A stretch of DNA of 64,000 bases from Spironucleus salmonicida (Eukaryota), in assembly GCF_000497125.1 (NCBI RefSeq), contig NC_090600.1:1075197-1139196 (forward strand). Reading direction: 5' to 3'. A program made the translations under genes and the position numbers. Below, in pieces: positions 13,451 to 58,205 of this stretch (its first letter is position 1; each line of letters begins with the position of its first letter). A model generated the notes under the pieces. That model ran no database searches. It was not told where the DNA came from and worked only from the letters and a program-made list of their open reading frames with translations.

Positions 13451-16400
13451 CCATATCACGACGAAAACGAGAGATAGCGATTTGCGTGTGTGCTGATGCC
13501 GAAATTAGCGGAAAATGGTAAAAAATAGTATTGAGTGTGTGGATATCGGATAGGTTACAAATATATCGCACTGAAAATTAGCTTCAAAAATTGCAGGGAT
13601 GTGTGAAGCTGGTCATAAGGGCCATGATGGCAGCGTGTGCGGTAATGAGGGAGCTGGGGAACGTGGATGTGTTTCAGGTTAAGGGGAGATATAAATAATA
13701 GCGTGAATAAAAATTACCAGGAAATATGGATAATACGTTTAGCATGTGTAAAGTGAAATAGTACCGATATGCGCAAATACAACATATATTATTTAGATTA
13801 GAATGCTATATGGTCTATATAAACTGAAGAATGCTGAAACTAATTTTGAGATGATAAGTAAACTGATTAAATTATATGGGGGAACTGCTGATTAATAAAA
13901 AACAATTCAGTTCATGATAATTTTTCATGTTGTAATATAGGGAAATATCGCTAAAATAGATGCTAAACAAAGATCTTCATATGGTATTATTTTATTATAA
14001 GAATCCCTGGATCATAAAAGAGCATATAACTAAATTACAGGGGTTGTTAACGTATTATATTTCTTTCTTATTTTGATGGGTACAATGAGTTTTGTAATGC
14101 GGGGATGCCTATGTAGTAAGATGAATAGTTTAACCATTATTATATTAGATTCAGTCAATAACGTTAGTAATATGGGAGCATAAATTCTTCTGGAAATTTA
14201 TTTCATTGGTAAAATATCATATGGGGATATGTATTCTAGCCTAAGCAGGAGGCGCAGCTTCAGAATAATTTAAAATTTTAGATGCAAGGCATTGGCAAAG
14301 CAAATAAAATGTTCAACAAATACTGTGTAATAGAAAATAGAAGAGGCGCAACCTGAGTGACGGGGTTCTAGTTAAATGCGTAAATGCATGGTATTGGTAC
14401 AATATCCTGATGACTACAAGGTTCTAATTTATACTAGTTAGCCTTGAATCCTAGATCCTCTGAAAACAGATGCTGATATGCTACCATATTGATGGGTGAA
14501 TACTCAGTAGTACCAAAGCTAAACAACGATGATAAAGGAAATGGTACTATTCTACTTTCCTCGGCCGATAGAAGCTACCGTATATATCACCCAACGTATC
14601 ACTGATATTAGAATTCTACCTCTCATTTGGTGTATGCAAATCTTCAGAAGCATACGTAAATGCTAGTGCAGCATAAAATCCTATCTACAACACCCTGAAA
14701 GATAACTTATAGGAGGCCTAGCAGCCGTATTATGCATAGCTCTTAGCACATCATATATATGATACTAACGTATATTTATAGTAAATTGGCTGTGTTGCAT
14801 ACTTTCTGAGACTATCATTTCCTGAATTTTCTAACTAACTAAGAGCTGTAGATATTTTAACTTAAGCATCAAATTTATTTAGCACAACATATACTAATGA
14901 AAATTAGGCTGTAATAGGCTCTTGATATTTGCATAATTTAACAATGATACGATAATAGCAAATTTGGGGATTTACTACTGGCTGGCCTGGATGAAGTAAT
15001 CTATATTGAGTCTACAGGAAAACTATTAATACTTTGCCTATGCGAGGTTATCAAGCTAAATAAATTATGCTGGTCTCTGGTAAAATGTGGATATCATAGT
15101 TAAATATCAACAAGGTCGGTATTTGAATGAATGATTGATGATAATTAGTAAAATTGTAACCTGTTAAATAATATATGCAACCAGGCAAACATATGGAAAT
15201 TATTAATCTGCCTTAAATATATTTAAAGGTATTATAGTAATAGAACATTAACACTATGCAGTTTAGAGAATATACAGGCATGATGTAAACTAGTACATAA
15301 AATGATAAACGGTTATTATTCTTAAGATAGTAGCTTCGGGGGTATAAACTTCAATTCTTCATGATCATATATTAACGTTATATACTATTATATACTTTTA
15401 GGTTTGATAAGCCACTGAATCTACTTACATATGCATTCTGAGTATCTTAAAGGCAAAGTATCATTCTTAATAGCGTTGTGGATTATACTGTGTATATGCG
15501 TACATTAGATATTCTGGTAAAATATGATAAAACAAACTCGCGTATATGTTACTGAATTTATCTGCACAGTGTTTATGTTTCTGAGCAATCAGCATGATAG
15601 GGGAACTGTTATTAAAATATCCTTATACACTAATATTTTAAATAAAATATATCCGCCGTATTTAAAGATGTATATGCTTCTAACAGCAAATAAGAAATCC
15701 ATATTAAATAAATTTAGTTTCTATTTGAATATTTGGAATGAAAGTTTATATTATTGCGTATACCAGGTGAGTACTTGAATTATAAAATTTGCAAATATCG
15801 TGAGTATTACTTTTAGTTTTGATTATCCACAATGCAAAGTTTAAGTCCGTTAATCACAATAAATTTATATTTTGTTCACCCGAATTATCGTTATTTAGTA
15901 TAAATACAAGACAGTTTTATAAGCAAGAATACGGTTAATGATATTTAACATTATTCTTTAGTTGATCAATATAATAGAGCTTAATATTTTATTAATTAAT
16001 AACATAGCTTATCGAATTATGAGTATTTTATGTAAATCTATGCGTGGTCTTGTTATTATGTTTAAACAGATATATAAGATTATTATTGTAAAGTCTATGC
16101 AGTTATAAGCTATACTATTTTCAAGATTTCGCGAAAATATATGTTTATATAAGTAGCCAATTATGCTTATAGGAATACAAATTAATATGTCATAACTTGG
16201 AAAACTGCTGCGTCCTTTACCTATGCGATACACATATACTTATGCTAGTTAACACAGTATGCTAAAGGTTACAGGTTCTCATTACTGTAGTCTGATAATA
16301 ATATTCGGGTATCACTATATAACAACAAATTGAAACGAGTCTGCCAAATAAATAAAAGCGTTATACAGAATATTAAAGTACTCAAAACTTACTATATATC

Positions 16401-17879
16401 CTATATGCTAGGTTTTCATATTATTGCACATTTTTATGACATGTACTGTATATTTATATAACTAAAATCTCATAGAATGAATCTAATTTATCATTTATTC
16501 GGTTGGTGCGTCAGTAAATATTGTTTATACTCAGAATATAGCGGTGCTTATAGGAGATACTAAGCTAGTACATATTACTGAAAACCATTAATCCAATAAA
16601 GGTCACTAGCTTCGTATCCATAAACAGCGATTTGGTAATTTACAAGAGCTAAGCTTAGGGTAAAATCAAAAGAATGCGAAATTATACTAGATAAAATGGT
16701 AATAATTAGCCATCTTTTGCATTAAATTTTAACCTACAACAGAAATATATCGTAATATACACGATACGACGAAATTATATAGCGAATGTAAGGTGGTATA
16801 TTAATAGCATACAGTTTATTTATAAAAATATGTTACATACTACTAGATTTAGGTATTTTTATAATAATATCCCACAACAAAGATACTGCGGCCAAATACA
16901 ATATGAGGCTGCTATGGAGCAGGGCAAACTAATGAAAAAGTAAGACAGTAAAAGCTTAAAATTATAAATGGATATGTTAACTAGAGTAAGCATAATTTAG
17001 TTTAGACTTTTAATCGTGTTTGATGCATATGAAAATTTGTACATAAAATTATTTTTGTATTTCAGCTCCGATATTAATTAAAGTTTTCAGATAGAAAATG
17101 TATTGCAAGGACTTATCTCATTACGTATAAGAGAAAGCTTCGGTTACCAGTAAATTTTGATATTGTACCTTATTATTCTTGAGCAGTGTGGCACAAGATC
17201 GCATTTAGCGAGAAATGCTACAAAATAATAGTATCAGCAAAAGTTTAAAAATAAATAAGGACATTAATATAGCAAACAGTGAGTCTATGTTAGCATTCGC
17301 ATAGAAATATTACTAGTATTTAATTTGGGGTTAGAACCTAATCAAGCTGATGTGATAATTATGGATTATATTTCTGCTGGTAAACACTTAATATAGCCAT
17401 AAGAGTTTAGACGGGTTGAGAAGTTTGTCAATAAGCGTGGTAAATAGTTTCTAGGATTTGCTCGGTTCAGTGGGTGATGGAAATAATGCTAGCTCAGCTT
17501 TCACAATCCAGGGATATAGCAATAATAACCCAACTGGTCGAGAATAAGATTGTAGCTGTGCTAATTACGATTTGGTAAATTGTGGTGTGAGATACTCTGA
17601 ATTGATACTGTTAGGGCATATGTAGCATGGAGAGAGGTTTATGGATGCTGATGTGGGGGGCCAAAAGGTATCTAATTGATGACGGTAGTTTTAGCTCCTA
17701 CGTAGTGTAAAAGTGCTATTTGATAGATTTTGCAGTACTGGGCCGGATCAGGTATGGGCCGCATTGCACGACGCTCAGATTCTGGGTGCTTGGTAAAATT
17801 GTGTTTTAATATATAGTATTATTATATATTTAAAGGTAAAGGGGAAATATTCGTAAGAATAATATTTTTTAATATATAA

Positions 17880-18560
17880 AATGTAGTAAATGCTATTGTC
17901 ACGGCGAGCGTATTAAGAACTAGCGCTTATGTGCTAGCGAATACTGTTTGCATTGCATTGGTAAGAAAAGCCAAAAAAGATGAATGTGTGCTTAGCGAAT
18001 GCAATACAGACTCCTACTACAGCGCAGCAGATTTCTGTCCGAAGACGATTAATAGTTCAACAAGTGCGAATGTTGCGATGGCACCTGCAAATATTTCGCT
18101 GAAGCATCGAATTAGTGCACGAAGTGGTTCGCATGGAGCTACTGAACAAAATAAAGTGACTGTGAAACATTACCTGCAAGTGCATCTAAGACTAATCATT
18201 AGAAAGTGTTTCTGCATTTATAAGCACCAGGGATGGTCAATCTTCAATACTGCACCAAACTGCCTTTTAGATAATAGTTATGGCGGCTGTTCGCTGTGTT
18301 ATAATGAATATTTAGCTAAATCAAATAGTAAGTGTTGACCATGCTCCACATCGATGGCAATCGACTTAAAATTCAACTGCGGGCGTAAACTTTAAATCAA
18401 CTGCTAGAATGTAAAGCACATGACGAGAAACCCTGCCTGGAAGGCTTTAAACCGATTGACAGTAAGTGATGAAAATTACTGCCTTATGATGCAGAAGGCG
18501 GTACCAGTGGATTTTCTAGAAATGGAACACCTATTCCCATAATTCCCTCAGAAGCGCGAT
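17880..18560 (+). pseudogene. Decayed cysteine-rich protein gene
   Basis: KCSKCYC..., DECVLSECNTDSYYSAADFCP, NCLLDNSYGGCSLCYNEYLAKSNSKC*PCS and EKPCLEGFKP in shifting frames with TGA stops. Confidence 0.6.
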
Positions 18561-19315
18561 AAAAATGCATCAGCGGGTGAGGCGGAAGCTCAGTAGAGCA
18601 CATTACGAGATTGGGGCAATTTCTATTGAGCAGTACGCCCTAAAACTGCAAACTGTAGCAGTTTAGAGACACCACTTGATAGTACTGGCGAAAATCACCC
18701 AAAACTGTGCAGGCGAAATGCGCGAGGCTTGAATGCTGCTCGAACGTCGGAAGCACTCCACCTGAAACTGGCGAGGTCTGGACTTTTGAGGATAGGTGCC
18801 CGAAAACTGCAGATACCACGGATAGTAGTGGGAAGTAAGCGCCGAAAATAGCGTGATTTGCGCGCATGACAATGCCAGGTGCGTAATGGTGGTGGGTGGT
18901 AGCAGGTAGGCTATCATCATGGTGGGTCGTGGGACTGGAATTTGGGGTATAAAATATGCAAATAGGAAAAGAATCATAGGATGCTGGGATTCGACTGAAA
19001 TAAGGTAAGGAGAAGCAGTTAAAATAGGAGCAAATGGCGGGTTAAACGAGATATGAACGTGAGTATAATAAATCATCTAGATAGAAATAGCTTTAATTGG
19101 AATAGTATTGGGGGAAACTAGAAAAGCTGTAAGCAACTGAGTAAAATTATCGAAATAGGGTTAGTGTTTAGTTCAAGTCATATTAGGTGGTTTTAGTTTA
19201 CCATTTTTAGTATGTTCTGCTTAACTTCATTATTAGATATAATAAAATATATTATTCAAATTAAATGCTGACATCCCAAATTCAGAAGTTTTACTATATA
19301 CTTATAAATTAAATA

Positions 19316-20005
19316 TCACTTTTTACCCTTCTTGATAAAATAATAAGCAAGGCCGCCCGCAACGGCGCCAACGACAAGAACCACCCCGACGACAATTCCG
19401 GTCACTGCCCCACCACCTAGCTTGTTGCTGGCCGGGGCCTCGGGGTCCACCGGTTGCTCCGGTGGAACTGGCACATTTGGATCAACCGGTGGAACTGGCA
19501 CGTTTGGATCAACCGGGTCATCTGGGATATCTGGGTCTGATCCAACTTTCCAGCACATTCCAGTAATTAGTGTAAATCCTTAAGCACAATCCAGACAACG
19601 GCCATCCCTGTCCATCTTCATTCCTGTTAGGCAAGTGGCACATGTTGGTAAACCACTATCTTTGCAGGTCTTACAGTTACTTCTGTTTCCACATTTGCAC
19701 GATGACGTGGTAAAGTCTGTGCAAGTTTTAGCTTCTCCTTCACCACAAAATTAATCCTATATGAGATCCTTACAGATTGGAGTACATTAACCTGTTGTCG
19801 TCGTTACGTGAGTAGTAGGCTCACAGGAATTGCACGAAGCTGCAGACTAGCAGACAATGCAGTTTGCTTAGCATGGTTAACACGTGTGGGTATTTTTGTC
19901 GCAATAACCTTCATGTTTACTTGCGCAGTCGAAATGTCTAGTACACGTGGAAACTGCATCATTTACTTGCGTATTGGTATTATCTTGGGTCATTTTTAAA
20001 ACCAT
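19316..20005 (-). CDS. Cysteine-rich membrane protein, CRMP1 type (229 aa; CxxC ectodomain, Pro-rich stalk, TM, KKGKK tail)
   Basis: Table 6: [27 protein letters not shown]...[20 protein letters not shown]...[36 protein letters not shown]. The [KR][KR]x[KR][KR] tail is typical of Spironucleus CRMP1. Stop in AGTGA. Confidence 0.92.
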
Positions 20006-21540
20006 GGTATATATTATATTCTTCAATAAACAAAACACTATTTAACCTGTTTTTTAAAATCTCATAAATAAAGCTATTACTTAAATATCACAGTTTCTCA
20101 AAACCTAGAAAGTAATGGCTGTTCTAATATATTAATAAATACCTCTAACTATAAAATGTAATTTATCAAAGAATAATTAATTACAACAATATTATCACTA
20201 ATGTTATCGTAATGTAAAAAGAAGAAAATATTTTGAGAAGGAGTCCGTAATTTAAAGATTTCAGCTATCTGCAAATAATTACAATATATTTAATTTAATA
20301 TAAAATTGTGTAAAACAGAACTTTATATATTATATTGATTTTACTATTTTTCTAACACTATCCATGGAACATTAAACTACTGTTTTCACAAAATTTAGTA
20401 ACTTCTATTTGCAATAAACTAATTTCATCATAATTCGAAGTTAGAAGGTAGTAATTCTACTACTATTAACTAATTTCATACGATGAATAACAAATAAAGT
20501 ATAATATTATAGTGAACTAATTATTTAATATCTTAAATAATAGCTACAAGTAAGAAGGGAAACTAAGAAAAGAATTTAATATTTTTCTTGTTCAATTAAA
20601 TTCGACTATCCTTATATAATATACACTTTATATTGAAAATGCACTTATATGGATAAGAAATTTACGATACGAATTAGTCACCCTACAGTATTTGGCGATC
20701 GTGTCTCAAAGGGAGCCCGTAAATCTATGAATCAACACCAGTAAAATATTTCTGTGAATTTTATGTAGATTTATGCTATTTTGTTCCAAAGCGTTGATTA
20801 CTATCTAATACGTTCTTTTTGCTGCTAAAAAAGAACTTATCTGCACCTTTTCTGTGCAAATATCCCTCAAGTTTCATTATGTTTCGTTTCGTCTAAGATC
20901 TAGGGCTTTCTACGTTAGCATTGAATTAGTTCGATTCAGGTTATGATCGCACCTTTTTCTTCAGTATTGAGGTTTTCATACACGGCATAACTCCATTGAC
21001 CTCAGTTTCTAGCTCTTTTGCTTACCTCACATTCTTACTATGATACCAGTAAGAACTTCTGATATTAAAGTAGGTTAAACCAACAAAAACAGTGACTAAA
21101 GGAAAAGTTTAGCGAATAACATGAATGGGCGTACTGAGGTAATTAATATTTTACAAATAATAATCTTCTACCTCAACTATAAACTATGCCCAAATTGCTG
21201 ATGAGATTAAGTTTATCGAAAACTCAACTGCCGATATTCGCATCATTACTATAATATTGACAACGTTAATTAACATTTAGGTAAGCAAACTAGCGAAAGA
21301 TATGTCATACTAAAGAATAGAGTGAGTATTTCGCCAGGGCACAACAGTCCAACGAATGAATTAATGCCGAGAACTGAAAGTTAAATTTTAACAATACCGC
21401 AACCCTAACCCCGTTCTTCAAAAGTTGAGGCTAAAACATAATATTATAGACCACTTAATATTATAGGTAGAAGATCCATGCAGCGTTGCTATGCTTACCT
21501 GCCCCAATCATAGATTCCCAGCAAAGGAGAAAAAAGACAC

Positions 21541-21613
21541 GGGAGTATAGCTCAGGTGGTAGAGCAATCGCCTGCAAAGTGATCGGTCACGAGTTCAATT
21601 CTCGTTACTCCCT
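21541..21613 (+). tRNA. tRNA-Cys (GCA), left copy, no adjacent oligo-T terminator
   Basis: Acceptor stem GGGAGTA/TACTCCC, D-arm TAGCTCAGGTGGTAGAGC, anticodon arm ATCGC-CTGCAAA-GTGAT, T-loop GTTCAAT, discriminator U (Cys identity element). Confidence 0.95.
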
Positions 21614-22847
21614 ACTATCTTAGAAAACTATATAAGATAATATTAATTATATCTAATATTAATATGGTTATAAGTGATGTTATATTACAAATACCTATCT
21701 AAAACTTGATTCCTTTTAGTCATAAAATATTTACTGCATGAATAATAAACCATATTAATAGTAATTTTTTCATAAGAATATTGCTTATTACTTTCAAAAT
21801 AGACTAACAACGATAAAAGATACAAATATCATAATGAAATAATTGACAAAATGTATATTTTATTCAGTATACAATCTTAGAAACATAAATCAGTGATATG
21901 TATAATATTTTGAACTAAAACTATTACATACCTTATTAATTACTGTATCTTTACATAAAATGCTACTATGATCAGGAAATTACTTTAAAGTTATGCAACA
22001 TTAAGTTTCTAAATTATTTTTATAGTATAATTATAATATATAATAATTGTATTAATTTTTCTTCAAAATGGTGATATATTCTAAACTTATGACTGTTCTC
22101 CTATAGTTATTTTATTAAAATGTTATTACCTTGAGAAATAAAATAAATATTGTATTGTTATCTAAACTGATTTTGTTTAAATTGCTGAGTTTATCCTTGA
22201 TTTGAGAATATAAATAATATTTTTTTCATTAAATAAGTTGTTAGCCATAAATTACACATTAGGATTTTAATTTAGAGTAATAAAAATCTTAAAATTGGGC
22301 TTATTAGTGTTTGTATGATGCTTAAAGATCTAAATTCATGTATTAGTAATTATTTACAATGATAGACCACTAATAATTAATTTACTTTTGTAATATTTAT
22401 TTAAATTAGTGACATATGCAAAACAGCCAAAAGTTAGCAGCACTAGTTTAGCATACAGCTAAACTTCCTTTAAAAATGTATTTACATAAAACTAGGAATT
22501 ACATGAAAATATTAAAAATATAGTCTATAAATTTATAAAACTATTTTAAGCTATGAATATTGCTTTTATTTAATTATATATGAAAGTAGTTTAACAATAT
22601 TAATGAAGGTTATGTTATAATTAACTATCTACTTGTATCTATTTTTAATACATAGTTATTGTGTAAAAAGGATTTCATACAGTAATATAGCGATTTATAG
22701 CAGTATTTATTCTTAATTTTACCTATTATTATAAATATTTTTATAACATCAGTAGTATGTAATATGTACTACTACAAGTACTATCAAGTCTAGATAGAAA
22801 ACTTATTTTATTAATAATTTTTTTCTAATTTACGAATATTTAATAAA

Positions 22848-23744
22848 TCATTCAAAATCATTTCTTACTTATACCGGAGCAGTACTAACCTTCTTTTTCA
22901 TGAACCAAAATGTGGCGAAACAAAGTCCTCCCACAACTATCAGTACCCCTATTATTATTCCTGCGATCGCACCACCGCCCAACTTATTTACAACTGATGG
23001 ATCCTAATTTTCAGACAACCAGCACATTTTAGTACGTAATTCGTACCCGTCATCGCATTCTCCACATTCGCCACGTTAGTTAAATTTCATATGTGGCAAA
23101 CAAGTTTTGCACTTTTCGCCGGTTTCATCACAAGAAGCACAATTTGAAGCTTCTCCACATTTGCATTCTGATGTTAGGCTTTCACTGCAAGACTTTGAAA
23201 CACCATTTTCACAGTAATATCCGTTTTGAATATTTTCGCATTCCTCAGTACATTGTCCTTCTAGTGTAGTGACAAATCCAAAAAGGTCGCAGAGATCACA
23301 AGTTGTGGGTGAAGAGCAAAATAAGCAATTCTCCATGCAAAATTAGCATTTTGATGTATCTAGATCACAGAAACTTCCTTAGATGAACATGCAGTCGTCC
23401 TAAATTTTACAGGGAAATTCACATAGTGACGTCTATGGGTTCTTTTCGAAACCTTCGGAGCATGTAGTGCAAGAATCGGTACTTGCACAGTTATCGCAAC
23501 CAAAAGGACAGTCTAGACATTAATCATTTTATAAAAATGTGAAAGATACGCATTTAGAGCATTTATTCCCAGTACACTATTGGCAGTTGTCTATGGATTT
23601 GTTGTCTTCACAGTAACAACCTTAACCATAAACAATATCTTCAGAGCATGGATCACAATTTACGGTCGTTGAGTCGTCTGCAGGGCAGAAATATCCAGCC
23701 TTGCAGCTGAAAACTTCATCTGTGCATGTACCAGTTTCTGTCAT
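22848..23744 (-). CDS. Cysteine-rich membrane protein with longer cytoplasmic tail (CRMP2-like, 298 aa), single copy in spacer
   Basis: Table 6: MTETGTCTDEVFSCKAGYFCPADDSTTVNCDPCSEDI... dense CxxC ...NKLGGGAIAGIIIGVLIVVGGLCFATFWFMKKKVSTAPVQVRNDFE*. Track ORF 23076-23336 is an internal piece. Confidence 0.92.
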
Positions 23745-24979
23745 TTTGTGAAAATCGATATTCGAAATATTTTAGTTAACTTGATGTAAATGATGATGTG
23801 GATTTTAGTTTTTAAACAATAGTAATATTACATTAATGGTAGTAATATATAATTATTAAACCACAAATTTGATATACTTATATAAAATTAGATTATATTA
23901 ATATAAATGATTATATGTACAAATATTGAAATATTGCCAAAGCTACATAAATTAACTTACATCTATCTAATAAAGTATTCCCGTTTAAAAGAATTTTTAT
24001 TTAATGAATTGTTAGTTTATACATATAGGTAATATTAATTTTTAAAAATCTAATTGGTTGTTTGGTTTTGCAAGTATTATACACATCCGATAATTTAAAA
24101 TTGGTAACACTTACTTGAATTAAAATATTATATTTCGATGAATTATAAATAATAAAGCAATTGAATACATATTTGTGGAATAGTTTCTGGTACTTTGTTA
24201 TAATAAAACTCTTATTCAATAAAAATCTTTTACCAAATGACCTAAACGGTAAATTTTCTAATAATTGTAATAAATAGCTAAATTATATTCATTAAGAAAA
24301 AATAAATTACTTAAGATATAAATTTTATACTATATCTGAAATTAAATATCCACCAAAATTATTTCTTACTTATTTATGTTACATTTGGATGTAACTTGTT
24401 TATTCTTATGAATTTTATACGAATTAACGAGTTTTTAATATTTTATTAAATTTGCAGTATTAAATGACATAAATAAATAATTTAACACAAAATATTCTAG
24501 TACTAAATCATTGAAAAATAAATACATAATACCATTAACTAATAATATTGTATTTTATGATTTGTGTAATTATTATTTAGAATATTTATGAGAACAATTA
24601 ATAAATAACTTTAAGCTTTATTAGTAATTGAAGTCGTAAAACAAAATTATTTTAAATATATTAATTCTATTTTTTTAATATATTATCTGGAAACTTAGAA
24701 ATTGTTTGAACTTAAATCAATAAATAAAGTAAGGAATAGTATCTAATTTAAAATCAGTCATTCTTTCTTATTAAAGTATTTTCCTCCTTTAAAGTTTATC
24801 GATATTACTTATATTTACTATTAAATATTATGTTAAAATTTAATTTAGGTGCATATGTAAACAACTAGTTGCATATAGAACCTTAAAGAAAGCTATTGAT
24901 ACTCTATAGATTCCGTATTATTACCAGGAATTATATCAATTAATTTCTCAATAATCACAGCGTCACGAACATATTTGTT

Positions 24980-25800
24980 TGAAGAATCCTAATGTAAAAC
25001 ACTAATATAATGCCCTAGTTTTAAATCTACTACTCTTAATTGTTTCCCATGCTTAGAAAATATAGTTTTAAACACGGACTATGTTTGGAGCGACAACATA
25101 AATACGATCAACTGCAAGAACTGTGCTTAAAATAAGGACTCAGAAACCTATGAAGCACCTTTATCAGAGGCAATTCATGCCTCAGCGAACAAAATTATTC
25201 AAAATTATCGAATAGATATGTTATAAAGCCAAGAATTCAGACATGCTAACTTATCTGTACACCATACTCACAATACCAATTTAAAGAATAGGATTTTTGC
25301 TATATGTTCATACACGGATACTAGCATTCCAATGCAAACTGATTCACATGGTCTTCAGAAATACTTTGCCGCACGTAAAACGAGTTGTATTATATAACCA
25401 GAATGAAAGGTTCCTATAACTGAAATGCAGTGATCTTTAAAACTGGTAGAGCTGAAAAATTGCTAGAAATTGACTAGTAGTGAAAATATTACCACGAAAT
25501 ATAAATGCGTAGTTGCCGAAAGTCCTGCAACATTTAGGTTCCATGGGTAAGATTGTTTAACATGTTAGAAGAATAATTTCTAGGAGTAGTCAGGGCAGTG
25601 TAATTTGTCATATGAAGGACATAAAATTATTGATTAAAAATGCTGAACAGACTAGGGTAAAAGTATATAATTTGTATAAATACTAACTGGGGTGATATTC
25701 TTGGATTATTTTAGATGTTTTGGCGGTTGTTTTTGGATTTTTTGTGGGTCTATATTTTACTTTGTCATAGACTTTAAAAGGGAAATGAGTCTGATAATGC
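24980..25800 (+). pseudogene. Decayed paralogue of the 22848-23744 CRMP
   Basis: CPSFKSTTLNCFPCLENIVLNTDYVWSDNINTINCKNCAQNK aligns with CPADDSTTVNCDPCSEDIVYGQGCYCEDNKSIDNCQQCTGNK. Later DCLTC...GQCNLSYEGHKIIDQKC* and a TM-like remnant near 25690-25770. Internal TGAs and many lost Cys. Confidence 0.7.
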
Positions 25801-26694
25801 ATGAATCTATAAGAGATATTAAATTATTATTACCATTAATGTAAATAAAACTTGAAATTTCATAAATGTTGATTTTATTTATGAAAATGATGAAATAAGA
25901 AAAAATTAGAGAATTTTAAATTGTGACTATAACAGCTTGTTGTTTTTAGTAGAATATAGTATATGAATAAAAAATTACATAATAATAATTTATTTTGTGT
26001 GATTACGAAATTTAATTTTTAATTAAGATTAAGAAGAATTACAGTTTTACCATTGTAGATATTACATATAAGGTTAGACAGACTTAATTTATATATTAAA
26101 ATAATAATAAGTTTAAGTACTAAAATAATTAAATATAACTAAAAATTTAAAGTTTGAAAAGTTCAATAGATAAAATTATTATACTAGAACATATAATCCA
26201 ATTCTAGCATAATTAATGAAAGAAATCTACATGTAACAGGTGATTCATTCAAATAAAACAATATGTAAATATAAATTTAATTACTAAAATGTATATTATA
26301 ATTGTGTATATCTCGTTACTGTAACAATTAAAATATACAAATTAATGATATTATTACTTTATAATTAAAGCTTATAGTATTTCATTTATTACTATATTAG
26401 TAGTATCTGTTACTTTGATTTTAAAACTATTATTGGATTTAAATAATCGGCTAATTTCCTTGGATTCATTGAATATGAATTATGAATTCATTAAATATTA
26501 ATAATATTAATAAATAGATTCATCTAATTTATTAATAGAATATATGAATAATTAAATCTGTATTCTGCATTATATTATGATTTCAGGCCTGCACGAAAAT
26601 TATTTATAATATCAAAATTATACGTTTTATATCATCATATATATATACTACCTATCCTTACAATATTATAATCATAAAAGTATTATTATCTCAC

Positions 26695-26700
26695 AAAAAA
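26695..26700 (-). terminator. Oligo-T Pol III terminator of right tRNA-Cys
   Basis: AAAAAA on + (T6 on -), 2 nt after the discriminator base. Confidence 0.8.
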
Positions 26701-26702
26701 GT

Positions 26703-26775
26703 AGGGAGTAACGAGAATTGAACTCGTGACCGATCACTTTGCAGGCGATTGCTCTACCACCTGAGCTATACTCCC
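26703..26775 (-). tRNA. tRNA-Cys (GCA), right copy with Pol III terminator
   Basis: Exact reverse complement of 21541-21613, followed by AC-TTTTTT on the coding strand. Confidence 0.95.
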
Positions 26776-28310
26776 GTGTCTTTTTTCTCCTTTGCTGGGA
26801 ATCTATGATTGGGGCAGGTAAGCATAGCAACGCTGCATGGATCTTCTACCTATAATATTAAGTGGTCTATAATATTATGTTTTAGCCTCAACTTTTGAAG
26901 AACGGGGTTAGGGTTGCGGTATTGTTAAAATTTAACTTTCAGTTCTCGGCATTAATTCATTCGTTGGACTGTTGTGCCCTGGCGAAATACTCACTCTATT
27001 CTTTAGTATGACATATCTTTCGCTAGTTTGCTTACCTAAATGTTAATTAACGTTGTCAATATTATAGTAATGATGCGAATATCGGCAGTTGAGTTTTCGA
27101 TAAACTTAATCTCATCAGCAATTTGGGCATAGTTTATAGTTGAGGTAGAAGATTATTATTTGTAAAATATTAATTACCTCAGTACGCCCATTCATGTTAT
27201 TCGCTAAACTTTTCCTTTAGTCACTGTTTTTGTTGGTTTAACCTACTTTAATATCAGAAGTTCTTACTGGTATCATAGTAAGAATGTGAGGTAAGCAAAA
27301 GAGCTAGAAACTGAGGTCAATGGAGTTATGCCGTGTATGAAAACCTCAATACTGAAGAAAAAGGTGCGATCATAACCTGAATCGAACTAATTCAATGCTA
27401 ACGTAGAAAGCCCTAGATCTTAGACGAAACGAAACATAATGAAACTTGAGGGATATTTGCACAGAAAAGGTGCAGATAAGTTCTTTTTTAGCAGCAAAAA
27501 GAACGTATTAGATAGTAATCAACGCTTTGGAACAAAATAGCATAAATCTACATAAAATTCACAGAAATATTTTACTGGTGTTGATTCATAGATTTACGGG
27601 CTCCCTTTGAGACACGATCGCCAAATACTGTAGGGTGACTAATTCGTATCGTAAATTTCTTATCCATATAAGTGCATTTTCAATATAAAGTGTATATTAT
27701 ATAAGGATAGTCGAATTTAATTGAACAAGAAAAATATTAAATTCTTTTCTTAGTTTCCCTTCTTACTTGTAGCTATTATTTAAGATATTAAATAATTAGT
27801 TCACTATAATATTATACTTTATTTGTTATTCATCGTATGAAATTAGTTAATAGTAGTAGAATTACTACCTTCTAACTTCGAATTATGATGAAATTAGTTT
27901 ATTGCAAATAGAAGTTACTAAATTTTGTGAAAACAGTAGTTTAATGTTCCATGGATAGTGTTAGAAAAATAGTAAAATCAATATAATATATAAAGTTCTG
28001 TTTTACACAATTTTATATTAAATTAAATATATTGTAATTATTTGCAGATAGCTGAAATCTTTAAATTACGGACTCCTTCTCAAAATATTTTCTTCTTTTT
28101 ACATTACGATAACATTAGTGATAATATTGTTGTAATTAATTATTCTTTGATAAATTACATTTTATAGTTAGAGGTATTTATTAATATATTAGAACAGCCA
28201 TTACTTTCTAGGTTTTGAGAAACTGTGATATTTAAGTAATAGCTTTATTTATGAGATTTTAAAAAACAGGTTAAATAGTGTTTTGTTTATTGAAGAATAT
28301 AATATATACC

Positions 28311-29000
28311 ATGGTTTTAAAAATGACCCAAGATAATACCAATACGCAAGTAAATGATGCAGTTTCCACGTGTACTAGACATTTCGACTGCGCAAGTAAA
28401 CATGAAGGTTATTGCGACAAAAATACCCACACGTGTTAACCATGCTAAGCAAACTGCATTGTCTGCTAGTCTGCAGCTTCGTGCAATTCCTGTGAGCCTA
28501 CTACTCACGTAACGACGACAACAGGTTAATGTACTCCAATCTGTAAGGATCTCATATAGGATTAATTTTGTGGTGAAGGAGAAGCTAAAACTTGCACAGA
28601 CTTTACCACGTCATCGTGCAAATGTGGAAACAGAAGTAACTGTAAGACCTGCAAAGATAGTGGTTTACCAACATGTGCCACTTGCCTAACAGGAATGAAG
28701 ATGGACAGGGATGGCCGTTGTCTGGATTGTGCTTAAGGATTTACACTAATTACTGGAATGTGCTGGAAAGTTGGATCAGACCCAGATATCCCAGATGACC
28801 CGGTTGATCCAAACGTGCCAGTTCCACCGGTTGATCCAAATGTGCCAGTTCCACCGGAGCAACCGGTGGACCCCGAGGCCCCGGCCAGCAACAAGCTAGG
28901 TGGTGGGGCAGTGACCGGAATTGTCGTCGGGGTGGTTCTTGTCGTTGGCGCCGTTGCGGGCGGCCTTGCTTATTATTTTATCAAGAAGGGTAAAAAGTGA
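28311..29000 (+). CDS. Cysteine-rich membrane protein, CRMP1 type (229 aa), mirror copy
   Basis: ATG 28311 to AAG-TGA 29000; no differences seen from 19316-20005. Confidence 0.92.
28800..28853 (+). repeat. 2 x 27-bp tandem repeat encoding PVDPNVPVP in CRMP stalk (mirror 19463-19516)
   Basis: ccggttgatccaaaYgtgccagttcca twice, with degenerate PVDP units on either side. Confidence 0.85.
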
Positions 29001-29755
29001 TATTTAATTTATAAGTATATAGTAAAACTTCTGAATTTGGGATGTCAGCATTTAATTTGAATAATATATTTTATTATATCTAATAATGAAGTTAAGCAGA
29101 ACATACTAAAAATGGTAAACTAAAACCACCTAATATGACTTGAACTAAACACTAACCCTATTTCGATAATTTTACTCAGTTGCTTACAGCTTTTCTAGTT
29201 TCCCCCAATACTATTCCAATTAAAGCTATTTCTATCTAGATGATTTATTATACTCACGTTCATATCTCGTTTAACCCGCCATTTGCTCCTATTTTAACTG
29301 CTTCTCCTTACCTTATTTCAGTCGAATCCCAGCATCCTATGATTCTTTTCCTATTTGCATATTTTATACCCCAAATTCCAGTCCCACGACCCACCATGAT
29401 GATAGCCTACCTGCTACCACCCACCACCATTACGCACCTGGCATTGTCATGCGCGCAAATCACGCTATTTTCGGCGCTTACTTCCCACTACTATCCGTGG
29501 TATCTGCAGTTTTCGGGCACCTATCCTCAAAAGTCCAGACCTCGCCAGTTTCAGGTGGAGTGCTTCCGACGTTCGAGCAGCATTCAAGCCTCGCGCATTT
29601 CGCCTGCACAGTTTTGGGTGATTTTCGCCAGTACTATCAAGTGGTGTCTCTAAACTGCTACAGTTTGCAGTTTTAGGGCGTACTGCTCAATAGAAATTGC
29701 CCCAATCTCGTAATGTGCTCTACTGAGCTTCCGCCTCACCCGCTGATGCATTTTT

Positions 29756-30436
29756 ATCGCGCTTCTGAGGGAATTATGGGAATAGGTGTTCCATTTCTAG
29801 AAAATCCACTGGTACCGCCTTCTGCATCATAAGGCAGTAATTTTCATCACTTACTGTCAATCGGTTTAAAGCCTTCCAGGCAGGGTTTCTCGTCATGTGC
29901 TTTACATTCTAGCAGTTGATTTAAAGTTTACGCCCGCAGTTGAATTTTAAGTCGATTGCCATCGATGTGGAGCATGGTCAACACTTACTATTTGATTTAG
30001 CTAAATATTCATTATAACACAGCGAACAGCCGCCATAACTATTATCTAAAAGGCAGTTTGGTGCAGTATTGAAGATTGACCATCCCTGGTGCTTATAAAT
30101 GCAGAAACACTTTCTAATGATTAGTCTTAGATGCACTTGCAGGTAATGTTTCACAGTCACTTTATTTTGTTCAGTAGCTCCATGCGAACCACTTCGTGCA
30201 CTAATTCGATGCTTCAGCGAAATATTTGCAGGTGCCATCGCAACATTCGCACTTGTTGAACTATTAATCGTCTTCGGACAGAAATCTGCTGCGCTGTAGT
30301 AGGAGTCTGTATTGCATTCGCTAAGCACACATTCATCTTTTTTGGCTTTTCTTACCAATGCAATGCAAACAGTATTCGCTAGCACATAAGCGCTAGTTCT
30401 TAATACGCTCGCCGTGACAATAGCATTTACTACATT
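29756..30436 (-). pseudogene. Decayed cysteine-rich protein gene (mirror of 17880-18560)
   Basis: Mirror ORF 29978-30385 is identical to 17931-18338. Confidence 0.6.
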
Positions 30437-33400
30437 TTATATATTAAAAAATATTATTCTTACGAATATTTCCCCTTTACCTTTAAATATATAATAATAC
30501 TATATATTAAAACACAATTTTACCAAGCACCCAGAATCTGAGCGTCGTGCAATGCGGCCCATACCTGATCCGGCCCAGTACTGCAAAATCTATCAAATAG
30601 CACTTTTACACTACGTAGGAGCTAAAACTACCGTCATCAATTAGATACCTTTTGGCCCCCCACATCAGCATCCATAAACCTCTCTCCATGCTACATATGC
30701 CCTAACAGTATCAATTCAGAGTATCTCACACCACAATTTACCAAATCGTAATTAGCACAGCTACAATCTTATTCTCGACCAGTTGGGTTATTATTGCTAT
30801 ATCCCTGGATTGTGAAAGCTGAGCTAGCATTATTTCCATCACCCACTGAACCGAGCAAATCCTAGAAACTATTTACCACGCTTATTGACAAACTTCTCAA
30901 CCCGTCTAAACTCTTATGGCTATATTAAGTGTTTACCAGCAGAAATATAATCCATAATTATCACATCAGCTTGATTAGGTTCTAACCCCAAATTAAATAC
31001 TAGTAATATTTCTATGCGAATGCTAACATAGACTCACTGTTTGCTATATTAATGTCCTTATTTATTTTTAAACTTTTGCTGATACTATTATTTTGTAGCA
31101 TTTCTCGCTAAATGCGATCTTGTGCCACACTGCTCAAGAATAATAAGGTACAATATCAAAATTTACTGGTAACCGAAGCTTTCTCTTATACGTAATGAGA
31201 TAAGTCCTTGCAATACATTTTCTATCTGAAAACTTTAATTAATATCGGAGCTGAAATACAAAAATAATTTTATGTACAAATTTTCATATGCATCAAACAC
31301 GATTAAAAGTCTAAACTAAATTATGCTTACTCTAGTTAACATATCCATTTATAATTTTAAGCTTTTACTGTCTTACTTTTTCATTAGTTTGCCCTGCTCC
31401 ATAGCAGCCTCATATTGTATTTGGCCGCAGTATCTTTGTTGTGGGATATTATTATAAAAATACCTAAATCTAGTAGTATGTAACATATTTTTATAAATAA
31501 ACTGTATGCTATTAATATACCACCTTACATTCGCTATATAATTTCGTCGTATCGTGTATATTACGATATATTTCTGTTGTAGGTTAAAATTTAATGCAAA
31601 AGATGGCTAATTATTACCATTTTATCTAGTATAATTTCGCATTCTTTTGATTTTACCCTAAGCTTAGCTCTTGTAAATTACCAAATCGCTGTTTATGGAT
31701 ACGAAGCTAGTGACCTTTATTGGATTAATGGTTTTCAGTAATATGTACTAGCTTAGTATCTCCTATAAGCACCGCTATATTCTGAGTATAAACAATATTT
31801 ACTGATGCACCAACCGAATAAATGATAAATTAGATTCATTCTATGAGATTTTAGTTATATAAATATACAGTACATGTCATAAAAATGTGCAATAATATGA
31901 AAACCTAGCATATAGGATATATAGTAAGTTTTGAGTACTTTAATATTCTGTATAACGCTTTTATTTATTTGGCAGACTCGTTTCAATTTGTTGTTATATA
32001 GTGATACCCGAATATTATTGTCAGACTACAGTAATGAGAACCTGTAACCTTTAGCATACTGTGTTAACTAGCATAAGTATATGTGTATCGCATAGGTAAA
32101 GGACGCAGCAGTTTTCCAAGTTATGACATATTAATTTGTATTCCTATAAGCATAATTGGCTACTTATATAAACATATATTTTCGCGAAATCTTGAAAATA
32201 GTATAGCTTATAACTGCATAGACTTTACAATAATAATCTTATATATCTGTTTAAACATAATAACAAGACCACGCATAGATTTACATAAAATACTCATAAT
32301 TCGATAAGCTATGTTATTAATTAATCAAATATTAAGCTCTATTATATTGATCAACTAAAGAATAATGTTAAATATCATTAACCGTATTCTTGCTTATAAA
32401 ACTGTCTTGTATTTATACTAAATAACGATAATTCGGGTGAACAAAATATAAATTTATTGTGATTAACGGACTTAAACTTTGCATTGTGGATAATCAAAAC
32501 TAAAAGTAATACTCACGATATTTGCAAATTTTATAATTCAAGTACTCACCTGGTATACGCAATAATATAAACTTTCATTGCAAATATTCAAATAGAAACT
32601 AAATTTATTTAATATGGATTTCTTATTTGCTGTTAGAAGCATATACATCTTTAAATACGGCGGATATATTTTATTTAAAATATTAGTGTATAAGGATATT
32701 TTAATAACAGTTCCCCTATCATGCTGATTGCTCAGAAACATAAACACTGTGCAGATAAATTCAGTAACATATACGCGAGTTTGTTTTATCATATTTTACC
32801 AGAATATCTAATGTACGCATATACACAGTATAATCCACAACGCTATTAAGAATGATACTTTGCCTTTAAGATACTCAGAATGCATATGTAAGTAGATTCA
32901 GTGGCTTATCAAACCTAAAAGTATATAATAGTATATAACGTTAATATATGATCATGAAGAATTGAAGTTTATACCCCCGAAGCTACTATCTTAAGAATAA
33001 TAACCGTTTATCATTTTATGTACTAGTTTACATCATGCCTGTATATTCTCTAAACTGCATAGTGTTAATGTTCTATTACTATAATACCTTTAAATATATT
33101 TAAGGCAGATTAATAATTTCCATATGTTTGCCTGGTTGCATATATTATTTAACAGGTTACAATTTTACTAATTATCATCAATCATTCATTCAAATACCGA
33201 CCTTGTTGATATTTAACTATGATATCCACATTTTACCAGAGACCAGCATAATTTATTTAGCTTGATAACCTCGCATAGGCAAAGTATTAATAGTTTTCCT
33301 GTAGACTCAATATAGATTACTTCATCCAGGCCAGCCAGTAGTAAATCCCCAAATTTGCTATTATCGTATCATTGTTAAATTATGCAAATATCAAGAGCCT

Positions 33401-36400
33401 ATTACAGCCTAATTTTCATTAGTATATGTTGTGCTAAATAAATTTGATGCTTAAGTTAAAATATCTACAGCTCTTAGTTAGTTAGAAAATTCAGGAAATG
33501 ATAGTCTCAGAAAGTATGCAACACAGCCAATTTACTATAAATATACGTTAGTATCATATATATGATGTGCTAAGAGCTATGCATAATACGGCTGCTAGGC
33601 CTCCTATAAGTTATCTTTCAGGGTGTTGTAGATAGGATTTTATGCTGCACTAGCATTTACGTATGCTTCTGAAGATTTGCATACACCAAATGAGAGGTAG
33701 AATTCTAATATCAGTGATACGTTGGGTGATATATACAGTAGCTTCTATCGGCCGAGAAAAGTAGAATAGTACCATTTCCTTTATCATCCTTGTTTAGCTT
33801 TGGTACTACTGAGTATTCACCCATCAATATGGTAGCATATCAGCATCTGTTTTCAGAGGATCTAGGATTCAAGGCTAACTAGTATAAATTAGAACCTTGT
33901 AGTCATCAGGATATTGTACCAATACCATGCATTTACGCATTTAACTAGAACCCCGTCACTCAGGTTGCGCCTCTTCTATTTTCTATTACACAGTATTTGT
34001 TGAACATTTTATTTGCTTTGCCAATGCCTTGCATCTAAAATTTTAAATTATTCTGAAGCTGCGCCTCCTGCTTAGGCTAGAATACATATCCCCATATGAT
34101 ATTTTACCAATGAAATAAATTTCCAGAAGAATTTATGCTCCCATATTACTAACGTTATTGACTGAATCTAATATAATAATGGTTAAACTATTCATCTTAC
34201 TACATAGGCATCCCCGCATTACAAAACTCATTGTACCCATCAAAATAAGAAAGAAATATAATACGTTAACAACCCCTGTAATTTAGTTATATGCTCTTTT
34301 ATGATCCAGGGATTCTTATAATAAAATAATACCATATGAAGATCTTTGTTTAGCATCTATTTTAGCGATATTTCCCTATATTACAACATGAAAAATTATC
34401 ATGAACTGAATTGTTTTTTATTAATCAGCAGTTCCCCCATATAATTTAATCAGTTTACTTATCATCTCAAAATTAGTTTCAGCATTCTTCAGTTTATATA
34501 GACCATATAGCATTCTAATCTAAATAATATATGTTGTATTTGCGCATATCGGTACTATTTCACTTTACACATGCTAAACGTATTATCCATATTTCCTGGT
34601 AATTTTTATTCACGCTATTATTTATATCTCCCCTTAACCTGAAACACATCCACGTTCCCCAGCTCCCTCATTACCGCACACGCTGCCATCATGGCCCTTA
34701 TGACCAGCTTCACACATCCCTGCAATTTTTGAAGCTAATTTTCAGTGCGATATATTTGTAACCTATCCGATATCCACACACTCAATACTATTTTTTACCA
34801 TTTTCCGCTAATTTCGGCATCAGCACACACGCAAATCGCTATCTCTCGTTTTCGTCGTGATATGGAAGTTTCGATTTTCGGGCCGGTGTCTGGGCGCAAT
34901 GTGTGGTGCAGCGTGAAATTTGTAGCAGGTGATATAATAGGTGGTGCGGGGTGGTTATTTTATATTTTAGGGCGCTGGTGGCAAGCCTGTCTCTGTGGGA
35001 TGTTACTGATTCTCAGCTCAAGTAAAAGTATTTGGGGTTTTATTGCGGTATTTTAAGAATTCCTATATCTGATGTAATGGTAGATAAACTTTTAAGAGGA
35101 AAGCTGCTGCATGCTTTTCTGGGTCAATGGGGTCTGAGAATGGTACTGTAAGTATTACTAGCTGATCTGTTATAAGGCTCTGCTGAAGTAGCAATTGCGG
35201 TAACTAAACCGTTCAGAGTGCTATTTTGGTGGTATAAATATCATGTGGGTGCTGAATTTGGTGTACAGTATATATAAACTTGCAAATTCTAAAATTGAAT
35301 TTCATATCAGTTGATGAATGCGTGGTAGCTAGATTAATAGCTGATATTAACACTGGCTAGACTTATGGAACTTGTTAATTGTTATTATTGGTGTAATTAT
35401 TTGTATTTTCAATGAAACAATGTACTTTACTCCCTAGCAATATCTTAAACCAAGAGATACAAGAATGAACTTTCACGAGGCTAGGTGTTGTATGCTGAGG
35501 TGCTGGGTTTCTACTTTATACAAAGTTTCGTAGATAAATATTTGGTTATATATCAAATGAAACAGTATTGTAGCTTACTGTACATGATTATCTATTAACT
35601 ATATAATTATTTTATAGTTAGCTTTATGGTTTTGTGTTTCATTATCAGTATCTTACTATAATAGGCGTTTTATTTGTAACAACATAATTCTCATAGTATT
35701 ACCATGATAAAATTAACTATCATATTAACAAATCGTGAAACTAACACCGCAAAATAGCTAATATCTAGTAATAAATATTCTTGTTTAGAGAAATTATAGA
35801 TTCGATATTTAGTACAGTTATTTATTAAAGATAACGATACTGTACTAATAACTGAACAAGTATAAACTTATTATCAGCATTGAAGGCTATCATTTGGCAG
35901 AGAATAATAATATTTGTAAAAAATTTACTTCTGAGTCTACTTTTTTGATAAATAATAACTTGAATATCATAACATGCAAAAGTAAGACGAGGAATTCCTA
36001 TAGCAAGATGAGATAAAAGAATACACAAAGAAAGTCATTATATAAAATGTATCTTATTAAAATTTGAGTATATAATAAGTCTTTATTGGTAATATTTAGT
36101 TATAGTTAATTAACACTATTATTTTGGAATATACATTGATAGAACCTGAATTATCAGTAGTTTAAGTTTAATAAAATTATTGGAAGAATATTATCCCGTA
36201 GTTGATAAGTTAGTGACCTACAGTCAACTATTCTATTTCAATATAAACTAAGTATGTACTTTATGCATAATTACAATAGTCTGATACTATTTGTTTTGTA
36301 TTGATATAATTATTTAGAGAATTAAATTTGAAAGCTATATCCAATAATGCAGTTTATAAGTAATTATTATCACAGCCTTCTTGTACTACATTATTTATAT

Positions 36401-58190: not shown

Positions 58191-58194
58191 ATTT

Positions 58195-58205
58195 GTGGAG
58201 TGGGG
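58195..58205 (-). promoter_or_regulatory. C-rich motif (CCCCACTCCAC) just upstream of the BRWD-like start
   Basis: 4 nt upstream of ATG 58190; similar motifs precede two other nearby starts. Confidence 0.5.

Follow-up and report, generated by a model that had tools for sequence, protein, structure and literature searches.

An inverted duplication of 19.8 kb in Spironucleus salmonicida with its inner edges at the 3' ends of two convergent tRNA-Cys genes

Fold-back inverted duplications have been described in humans, where, according to the main text of PMC3907307, all have a single-copy spacer between the two copies (766-70,466 bp, median 3,428), with inverted homology at the spacer edge that in 3 of 21 consists of an opposed interspersed repeat of about 300 bp. 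For yeast, PMC10164571 describes fold-back of single-stranded DNA between inverted repeats as much as 30 kb from each other, the tail being removed. In the diplomonad Giardia, variant surface protein genes occur as identical inverted pairs, head-to-head or tail-to-tail, 2-4 kb apart and with abrupt divergence, the origin of which is termed cryptic by the authors (main text of PMC2996952); a look-up of the term "tRNA" in the text of that paper gave no occurrence. In the main texts of the literature searched, no description was found of tRNA-edged inverted duplications or of diplomonad Pol III terminators. Genes for tRNAs are sites of replication-fork pausing as well as integration targets for mobile elements.

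The window analysed here, meaning the whole stretch of 64,000 nucleotides from S. salmonicida contig NC_090600.1, holds a large inverted duplication with the following parts (positions are those of the window):

1774-21616, no strand: left arm of the inverted duplication, 19,843 nt (BLAST against the reverse complement of the right side; contig depth)
16511-21616, no strand: inner zone without arm differences, its partner being 26700-31805 (0 differences, against 140 in the outer 14.7 kb)
21617-26699, no strand: unique spacer, 5,083 nt, 25% G+C, the loop of the proposed fold-back (contig cover; sequence)
26700-46541, no strand: right arm of the inverted duplication, 19,842 nt, without one C at the position matching left 8214 (BLAST)

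BLAST aligns the two arms along 19,844 columns at 99.28% identity (99.279%), counting 140 mismatches and 3 gaps; the arms fall short of full identity, and at 19.8 kb each they extend far beyond the span of the original finding. No second copy of the spacer was found within the 64-kb window. The inverted duplication is interstitial: the flanks on either side are unique and carry genes (a sugar transporter in 1-1773, several genes in 46542-64000), and there is no sign of a terminal deletion or of dicentric resolution beside it. It resembles the human and yeast fold-backs (PMC3907307 and PMC10164571), in which fold-back is followed by tail removal and synthesis, in having inverted copies around a unique spacer of a few kb and, if the tRNA genes pre-date the event, inverted homology at the border, but these are terminal, with deletion, a dicentric chromosome and telomere healing. 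The repeat here would be a tRNA gene instead of an Alu or LINE, and, unlike the arms of the fold-back cases, those in S. salmonicida have since diverged by 0.7% and been partly re-homogenised. There is also a likeness to ODIRA, in which template switching at short inverted repeats in replication gives inverted copies; ODIRA, however, yields an inverted triplication with the middle copy inverted and two inverted junctions, whereas here there are two arms, one spacer and about twice the depth.

Two copies really exist. In read-derived contigs the depth of the arms and of the spacer, respectively, is 330-404 and 149 in run X1, and 16-29 (about 23.7) and 10.6 in X2; with the arms at 2.2-2.6 times the spacer depth, the duplication is real. 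The X1 spacer contig (21587-26729, depth 148.9) has tRNA 3' ends at both ends, and that of X2 (21585-26674, depth 10.6) at the left only, ending 25 nt short of the right junction. Contigs built at k=31 give no phasing of which tRNA copy joins which flank, the spacer contig having 30 letters on the arm side where 31 are required to count as bridging. Both arm variants of the substitutions occur among the contigs of the runs, and those of X5, from a second study, mix left-type and right-type letters, depending on the position.

Base-by-base comparison places the end of exact arm identity at 21616/26700, 3 nt (ACT) past the tRNA discriminator at 21613/26703, just where an earlier, sequence-only reading of this DNA had put it. 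The first mismatches beyond are at 21617/26699 and then 21619/26697; the edge given by the repeat finder, 21621/26695, is a product of its mismatch tolerance and lies past the true end of identity. As that reading had also supposed, no homology was found beyond the inner junctions, the best local score of the 400 nt on each inner side being reached by 90 of 300 shuffles. Divergence between the arms is patchy, from 0 to 36 differences per kb, and the inner 5.1 kb has none, against an expectation of about 48 from the outer rate, so that arm-to-arm conversion has been active. At the outer ends, blastn comparison of the flanks gave no homology and tblastx nothing above noise; a 25-nt stretch of 80% identity lies at nearly equal offsets just beyond both outer junctions (5 of 2,000 shuffles match it). 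The outer edge may also fall within a repeated gene family, and a Pfam search of the right membrane-like tail at the outer flank gave no match. A codon-bias gene map was tried as a guide to ORFs crossing the outer junctions, where a truncated gene would point to the derived arm, and was set aside because its signal was too weak.

Genetic code 6 opens long ORFs in the window, while tables 11 and 4 leave almost none. A ciliate as the source was considered and rejected, on the names of the matching proteins and on the oligo-T loose end behind the arm gene described below. Genes for cysteine-rich membrane proteins of the S. salmonicida type are present in both arms and in the spacer, and are listed here with a large ORF of the arms:

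5102-10204, + strand: 1,700-aa ORF (code 6), intact in the left arm (ORF list; 1-nt gap at left 8214)
19316-20065, - strand: cysteine-rich membrane protein 1 family gene, left copy (66% identity to proteins named Cysteine-rich membrane protein 1 of Spironucleus salmonicida)
22848-23744, - strand: cysteine-rich membrane protein paralogue in the spacer, 298 aa from the first ATG (Pfam VSP C-terminal; similarity to the arm gene)
28251-29000, + strand: cysteine-rich membrane protein 1 family gene, right copy, identical to the left (arm comparison)

The two arm copies of the cysteine-rich gene lie head to head, 8.2 kb apart. Contig depth over 19316-20065 is high in X5 and X6, runs guessed to be RNA, and a loose end with adaptor and oligo-T lies before 19305, 14 nt past the stop codon of this gene. 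The spacer gene matches Pfam VSP C-terminal with an E of 0.0018, which does not reach the curated cut-off, and is 36% identical to the arm gene (E 1e-29); contigs of low depth from X5 and X6, again RNA only by guess, lie over it at 22875-23813. No Pfam family matched the 1,700-aa ORF, the right-arm copy of which is split by an apparent 1-nt deletion at 40101 into 38112-40235 and 40046-43213 (- strand). Like the Giardia pairs, the arm copies of the cysteine-rich gene are identical inverted genes for cysteine-rich surface proteins of a diplomonad, a few kb apart and with abrupt edges; in the main text of PMC2996952, however, the Giardia arms comprise a single gene with 139-729 bp of flanking sequence, and the DNA between them is given as non-coding, whereas the S. 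salmonicida arms are 19.8 kb long with several genes and their spacer carries a paralogous gene. As in tRNA-targeted integration, the breakpoint is at a tRNA 3' end. Unlike the mobile elements that integrate in this way, the duplicated unit is ordinary chromosomal DNA and the spacer flanks are inverted rather than direct; a target-site duplication is absent, as are integrase, reverse transcriptase and transposase (Pfam) from 66 translated ORFs taken from both flanks, the left arm and the spacer and from 16 further right-flank ORFs.

ARAGORN and Rfam agree on exactly two tRNA genes in the 64-kb window, both tRNA-Cys(GCA) and convergent across the 5,083-nt spacer:

21541-21613, + strand: left tRNA-Cys(GCA), 73 nt, discriminator T at 21613 (ARAGORN; Rfam RF00005, 67.2 bits against a gathering score of 29)
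21614-21616, + strand: common trailer ACT, end of the identical bases of the left arm, with partner 26700-26702 (base-by-base comparison)
21617-21713, + strand: left trailer without any T4, the first TTTT being at 21714-21717 (sequence scan)
26695-26700, - strand: T6 run right behind the right tRNA-Cys (read from the sequence)
26703-26775, - strand: right tRNA-Cys(GCA), identical to the left copy (ARAGORN; Rfam; base-by-base comparison)

The trailer of the right copy is ACTTTTTTGTGAG; its T6, which we take to be a canonical Pol III terminator, begins with the T of the common ACT, and this copy has both the cloverleaf and the close T-run of a eukaryotic nuclear Pol III gene. The trailer of the left copy is ACTATCTTAGAAAAC, with the nearest TTTT 101 nt downstream and no T-run shortly after the gene. 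Reading and scanning of the sequence thus confirm the asymmetry pointed out earlier, with the right copy running into T6 and the left into unrelated sequence. TTTT is also absent from 29% of 100-nt spacer windows, which makes its absence behind the left copy less telling. The left flank resembles unselected DNA without a T-run, as a fresh junction would, an observation in favour of the sequence-only reading. The contigs of X5 and X6, candidate RNA runs by guess, leave 21592-22874 uncovered, a blank that is evidence neither way on the left trailer.

A 74-nt contig of X2 covers only 21541-21614, at a depth of 41.9, compared with 10.6 in the spacer and 16-29 in the arm contigs. This depth makes the tRNA-Cys gene multi-copy, at about four copies, with upstream flanks that diverge from the first tRNA base. 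A further locus, or possibly an alternative allele, seen as a loose end of X2 before 26695, has the same ACT and T6 trailer as the right copy and then differs; ACT therefore looks like a feature of the tRNA-Cys family rather than a mark of the duplication, and need not signal its end. At 8 of the 11 positions that follow ACT the left trailer has the same base as this locus, a level matched by 1.4% of random spacer pieces; as a weak, post hoc hint, the left flank may thus be an old tRNA-Cys flank with a decayed T-run. In the 30 nt after these the agreement is at chance level, with 35% of random pieces scoring as high. Since the copies share 76 nt anyway, the breakpoint can be placed only to within that common stretch, which is the signature of a homology-mediated event. 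With 162 tRNAs in 14.7 Mb (main text of PMC9509377), simple arithmetic from the tRNA count gives a probability of about 8e-5 for a random breakpoint to lie at most 3 nt to either side of a tRNA 3' end. The coincidence of edge and tRNA is too exact for chance, so that tRNA-Cys was probably involved in the duplication. To that extent the tRNA-anchored mechanism put forward earlier stands, the inner edges being at the tRNA 3' end; its further suggestion, that copying was templated up to the terminator, is unlikely.

Our tentative preference is for two convergent tRNA-Cys genes that were present beforehand and provided the short inverted repeat on which a fold-back or template-switch duplication took place, its loop being the spacer. 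The order of events and the mechanism, as we infer them, would be as follows. The starting locus would have contained two separate tRNA-Cys(GCA) genes from a small dispersed family, convergent and some 5 kb from one another, with a cysteine-rich membrane protein gene in between. A break or stalled fork beside one of them would expose a strand, which could pair with the other copy via the 76-nt inverted match (tRNA plus ACT); the non-matching tail would be trimmed, and synthesis would then copy the upstream region of the other side in reverse. The product would be a large inverted duplication with the 5.1-kb spacer as loop and with inner edges that are, by construction, the ends of the tRNA match; arm-to-arm gene conversion would later have kept the inner 5.1 kb identical. 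Under such a scheme the edge must fall at the end of the old repeat, in line with the loss of identity 3 nt past the tRNA in both arms and with the lack of homology further in, and each tRNA would keep its own 3' flank, so that the right T6 and the T-less left trailer would never have been within the duplication. The scheme is further favoured by a tRNA-Cys that is a dispersed repeat, with ACT and T6 at a further locus, by the weak likeness of the left trailer to that locus, by the reality of the two copies, by the human and yeast precedents and by an outer edge that may also fall in a repeated gene family. Several observations weigh against a pre-existing pair. The missing T-run of the left copy argues against its having been there before: no T4 for 100 nt is unusual for a long-working tRNA gene and fits a fresh junction, and the likeness of the left trailer to the further locus stops short, with the next 30 nt at chance level. 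Identical inverted tRNAs within 10 kb are rare a priori, about 0.15 pairs per genome by our own estimate from the 162 tRNAs in 14.7 Mb given in the main text of PMC9509377. Classical fold-back is terminal, with deletion, while this event is interstitial with unique flanks on both sides, so that fold-back would need a second switch or joining step.

A widened form of the sequence-only reading, which we consider unlikely, starts from a single tRNA-Cys, the right one with its T6. A template switch by microhomology, possibly ACT, would land or stop at the 3' end of this gene because of a lesion there linked to replication or to Pol III, and the left tRNA would be a copy that breaks off after one base of the terminator and continues in unrelated DNA. 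This would account for a left flank that, like unselected spacer DNA, lacks a T-run while the right copy and the further locus both have T6. That copy-number change can arise from forks stalled at tRNA genes is accepted, as cited in the main text of PMC11790251, and only 2-8 bp of microhomology is often used at fold-back junctions (main text of PMC3907307). The stall zone is broad, however, and an edge at most 3 nt from the mature 3' end would require an extra, unexplained precision step; ACT follows the tRNA at another locus too, and the left trailer is weakly like the trailer there (p about 0.014). The accompanying claim that the right arm is ancestral is weakened by a multi-copy tRNA, ACT at that further locus and possible flipping of the spacer; that the right, terminator-bearing arm has the broken 1,700-aa ORF is neutral at best for a single-tRNA origin. 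Arms of 19.8 kb and 99.3% identity, with 5.1 kb identical beside the spacer, may well be able to recombine and flip it; which arm adjoins the T6 end would then say little on ancestry, and any signal of it would be erased.

It is more doubtful still that the palindrome is an old one whose present edges are gene-conversion edges, a selected, invariant tRNA pinning the last homology while that beyond has decayed. The patchy divergence, with none in the inner 5.1 kb and conversion active, and the short remnant of similarity just past the outer edge are in keeping with this, but no such remnant is found inside the spacer ends, and so abrupt a fall, with 100% identity lost inside a single base, looks more like the edge of the original event than one left by decay. 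That the edge of a duplication came to lie beside a tRNA gene by chance is very unlikely. With 19.2% of the genome duplicated (main text of PMC9509377) there are many edges, and the scan covers many windows, but at about 8e-5 per breakpoint several hundred duplicated segments would still give at most about 0.1 expected per genome. Least probable of all is an inverted copy made by a chimeric or misjoined long-read contig. Inverted chimeras are known in long-read data, and X1 and X2, which contain the stretch, may be the assembly's own source and hence not independent evidence; against this stand the 140 substitutions between the arms, with both variants in read-derived contigs, the raised arm depth, the tRNA 3' ends on both sides of the X1 spacer contig, the mixture of left-type and right-type letters in X5, and the verification of the published assembly against optical maps (PMC9509377).

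The rearrangement is of a known kind and by itself is no new mechanism. One lesson from it is that retention of a terminator in one copy is no guide to ancestry in a palindrome with recombining arms. If the tRNA pair was the seed, the locus would be a clean natural case of a dispersed gene family member acting as a fold-back inverted repeat in a deep-branching eukaryote. Surface-protein genes of a fish parasite are part of what was duplicated, so that the locus bears on the growth and uniformity of their repertoire. That dispersed identical tRNA genes repeatedly seed large palindromic duplications in diplomonads, multiplying and homogenising cysteine-rich surface-protein genes, is a long shot; if true, tRNA seeding would explain how the "cryptic" inverted pairs of Giardia, and some of the 19% of this genome that is duplicated, arose, and it supplies a checkable hypothesis for those Giardia gene pairs, whose origin is unexplained.

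The two arms of the inverted duplication align over 19,844 columns at 99.279% identity, with 140 mismatches and three one-base gaps; two of these, at 4693 and 4699, cancel each other out, and the third (8214 / 40101) is one C absent in the right arm. Using ARAGORN, exactly two tRNA genes were identified in the window, both tRNA-Cys(GCA) (67.2 bits with Rfam). They have the same sequence, are convergent, and form the innermost elements of the duplication, on either side of a spacer of which no second copy occurs elsewhere in the window.

Features of the inverted duplication (window coordinates)
1774-21616, no strand, left arm, from alignment to the inverted right arm
19316-20065, - strand, arm cysteine-rich membrane protein gene, 66% identity to Cysteine-rich membrane protein 1
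21541-21613, + strand, left tRNA-Cys(GCA), from ARAGORN and Rfam
21617-26699, no strand, spacer of 5,083 nt between the arms
22848-23744, - strand, spacer gene, a paralogue of the arm gene (36% identity, E 1e-29)
26703-26775, - strand, right tRNA-Cys(GCA), from ARAGORN and Rfam
26700-46541, no strand, right arm, from alignment to the inverted left arm

The junctions were described correctly by the sequence-only reading, which had arm identity ending 3 nt past the discriminator. In a base-by-base comparison the last match (21616/26700) closes an ACT following the discriminator T, and mismatches begin at 21617, then 21619; no homology continues past that point, the best local score being equalled by 90 of 300 shuffles. 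The right trailer is ACTTTTTTGTGAG, with T6 at 26695-26700, and the left trailer is ACTATCTTAGAAAAC, with no TTTT before 21714. Two things temper this contrast: the opening T of T6 belongs to the shared ACT, and since TTTT is absent from 29% of 100-nt spacer windows, the left flank looks like mere unselected DNA.

Read-derived contigs of four coded sequencing runs were compared with the region 13000-27000. In run X1 a single contig of depth 148.9 spans 21587-26729, and the arm contigs lie at 330-404; in X2 the depth is 10.6 for the spacer contig (21585-26674) and 16-29 for the arm contigs, though these two runs may be the assembly's own source data. Both variants of the arm substitutions are found among the runs: 13116 carries the right-arm letter in X1 and the left-arm letter in X2, and X5, from a separate study, has right-type letters at 13116-13126 in one contig and left-type letters at 13179-13347 in another. 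With both variants present and arm depth about 2.2-2.6 times that of the spacer, it is very unlikely that the duplication is an assembly artefact; the excess over two may come from composition bias, the spacer being 25% G+C. Both ends of the X1 spacer contig lie 30 letters into the tRNA 3' end, where the bridging rule asks one letter more, and that of X2 enters the tRNA at its left end only; short contigs of this kind cannot assign a tRNA copy to its flank. Ending 30 letters into a repeat is how a k=31 graph behaves at a repeat edge.

The tRNA itself is a dispersed repeat. A 74-nt X2 contig confined to 21541-21614 has a depth of 41.9, about four spacer-equivalents, so other loci must share this tRNA from its first base and diverge immediately upstream. 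Another X2 contig, with a loose end, starts to match at 26695 and runs into the tRNA, with 255 or more unrelated letters ahead of the match; it represents a separate tRNA-Cys locus or else a different allele at the right junction. It has ACT and T6 after the tRNA and then diverges from the right copy. ACT is thus common to at least three tRNA-Cys flanks and is not usable as the duplication's last bases. After ACT, the left trailer matches this further locus at 8 of 11 bases (equalled by 1.4% of random spacer pieces), and over the following 30 nt similarity is at chance level; taken post hoc, the match hints weakly at an old tRNA-Cys flank on the left, its T-run altered by two substitutions.

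Inverted duplications made by fold-back or template switching have this anatomy: two arms in opposite orientation enclose a single-copy spacer a few kb long, and they end sharply at an element that borders the spacer, inverted, on both sides. The best reading, held at a little under even chances, is that a pre-existing convergent tRNA-Cys pair seeded it. The spacer gene would already have been flanked by the two tRNA genes; at a stalled fork or break outside one of them the 76-nt copies would have paired, and synthesis would then have replaced the upstream region on that side with an inverted copy of the opposite side. Each tRNA would retain its own 3' flank, so that T6 on only one needs no "templating up to the terminator". 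Against this seeding by a pre-existing pair stand the rarity a priori of identical inverted tRNA pairs within 10 kb (about 0.15 per genome, our own estimate using figures from PMC9509377) and the left copy's lack of the T-run expected in a long-standing working tRNA gene. That same lack favours the sequence-only reading, in which the right arm is ancestral and duplication was templated up to its Pol III terminator; widened, this makes the left tRNA a copy joined to unrelated DNA by a fold-back that was primed by microhomology and landed at a lesion linked to Pol III. It is unlikely; against it, a stall zone is not expected to put the edge as close as 3 nt to the mature tRNA end. The ancestry argument itself fails: the right arm holds a broken 1,700-aa ORF, and recombination between 19.8-kb arms that are 99.3% identical can invert the spacer.

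Arm differences are uneven, from 0 to 36 per kb (36 in 10000-10999, 0 in 12000-12999), and the inner 5.1 kb (16511-21616 / 26700-31805) has none, against about 48 expected at the outer rate. Gene-conversion tracts, densest beside the spacer, would give such a mosaic; arm-to-arm conversion has therefore been active, and the duplication is older than a 0.7% divergence implies. An old palindrome in which the tRNA only pins the conversion edge is nevertheless improbable, since the spacer ends show no residual similarity at all. Pure coincidence of the edge with a tRNA, at a chance of about 8e-5 per breakpoint, is more improbable again.

Because the event is interstitial, the outer edge needs a further step, either another switch or a joining. 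Just outside the outer junctions, 1717-1742 and 46573-46598 match over 25 nt at 80% identity and near-equal offsets (reached by 5 of 2,000 shuffles), in frames resembling membrane-spanning tails. On this thin evidence the edge may lie inside decayed paralogous cysteine-rich membrane protein genes, or the stretch may be what is left of a second pair of paralogous sequences; a Pfam search of the right tail and a tblastx comparison of the outer flanks gave nothing.

Genetic code tables 11 and 4 give hardly any long ORFs, and table 6 yields ORFs of 1,774 and 1,672 codons, the latter with a bromodomain. The arm gene product shows 66% identity to Spironucleus salmonicida proteins named Cysteine-rich membrane protein 1 by their source, and 100% to one unnamed entry; with the spacer paralogue, this makes the locus a small diplomonad group of surface-protein-type genes. 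In X5 and X6, both guessed to be RNA, the contigs cover the arm gene (19305-19915) very deeply, at up to 1,635, and an adaptor and oligo-T loose end before 19305, about 14 nt past the stop codon, indicates a very short 3' UTR. Inside the gene, a tandem 27-nt unit at 19459-19537 codes for a proline-rich stretch (a 10-residue unit, twice); the repeat finder listed it between the arms as two offset inverted pairs, I2 and I3. X5 contigs at depth 33-48 also cover 20614-21591, a stretch that leads up to the tRNA and takes in its opening 51 nt; the contigs are strandless, the region has no convincing ORF, and the signal may come from a long 5' leader or from antisense or read-through transcription.

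The C deletion at 40101 breaks the 1,700-aa ORF, whole in the left arm (5102-10204, +), into 38112-40235 and 40046-43213 (both -), either a young pseudogene or an assembly base error; its protein matches no Pfam family. In both arms a single in-frame TGA (3023-3025) interrupts a cysteine-rich frame at 2405-3550 (-), mirrored at 44765-45910 (+); the frame is a pseudogene or, less likely, uses a selenocysteine codon; a Sec tRNA is reported for S. salmonicida (PMC1805757). In the right flank, two opposed ELMO/CED-12 domain genes 3 kb apart (58352-59599, +; 62459-63793, -), with a Snf7 gene and an alpha/beta hydrolase gene between them, are an older, diverged inverted pair.

In human fold-back duplications, all junctions of 21 sequenced cases have a spacer (766-70,466 bp, median 3,428), and in 3 of the 21 the spacer edges carry interspersed repeats about 300 bp long and in opposed orientation (PMC3907307). 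In yeast, single-stranded DNA folds back between inverted repeats separated by as much as 30 kb, and the non-homologous tail is removed (PMC10164571). ODIRA, a known route to inverted triplication, does not fit, its copy number being three and that here two; no mobile-element proteins were detected among the ORFs scanned. The published S. salmonicida assembly has 162 tRNAs in 14.7 Mb, 19.2% of it duplicated, and its paper reports "more duplicated copies of tRNAs", with zero occurrences of "inverted" or "palindrom" in the text (PMC9509377). In the literature searched, inverted duplications edged by tRNA genes were not found described for diplomonads. The closest biological relatives are the 14 identical inverted variant surface protein gene pairs of Giardia, 2-4 kb apart with abrupt divergence and called "cryptic" by their authors (PMC2996952). 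The arms of the present duplication have about ten times the length, and its spacer contains a paralogue. There is a slim chance that tRNA pairs repeatedly seed such palindromes, and so would multiply surface-protein genes in diplomonads.
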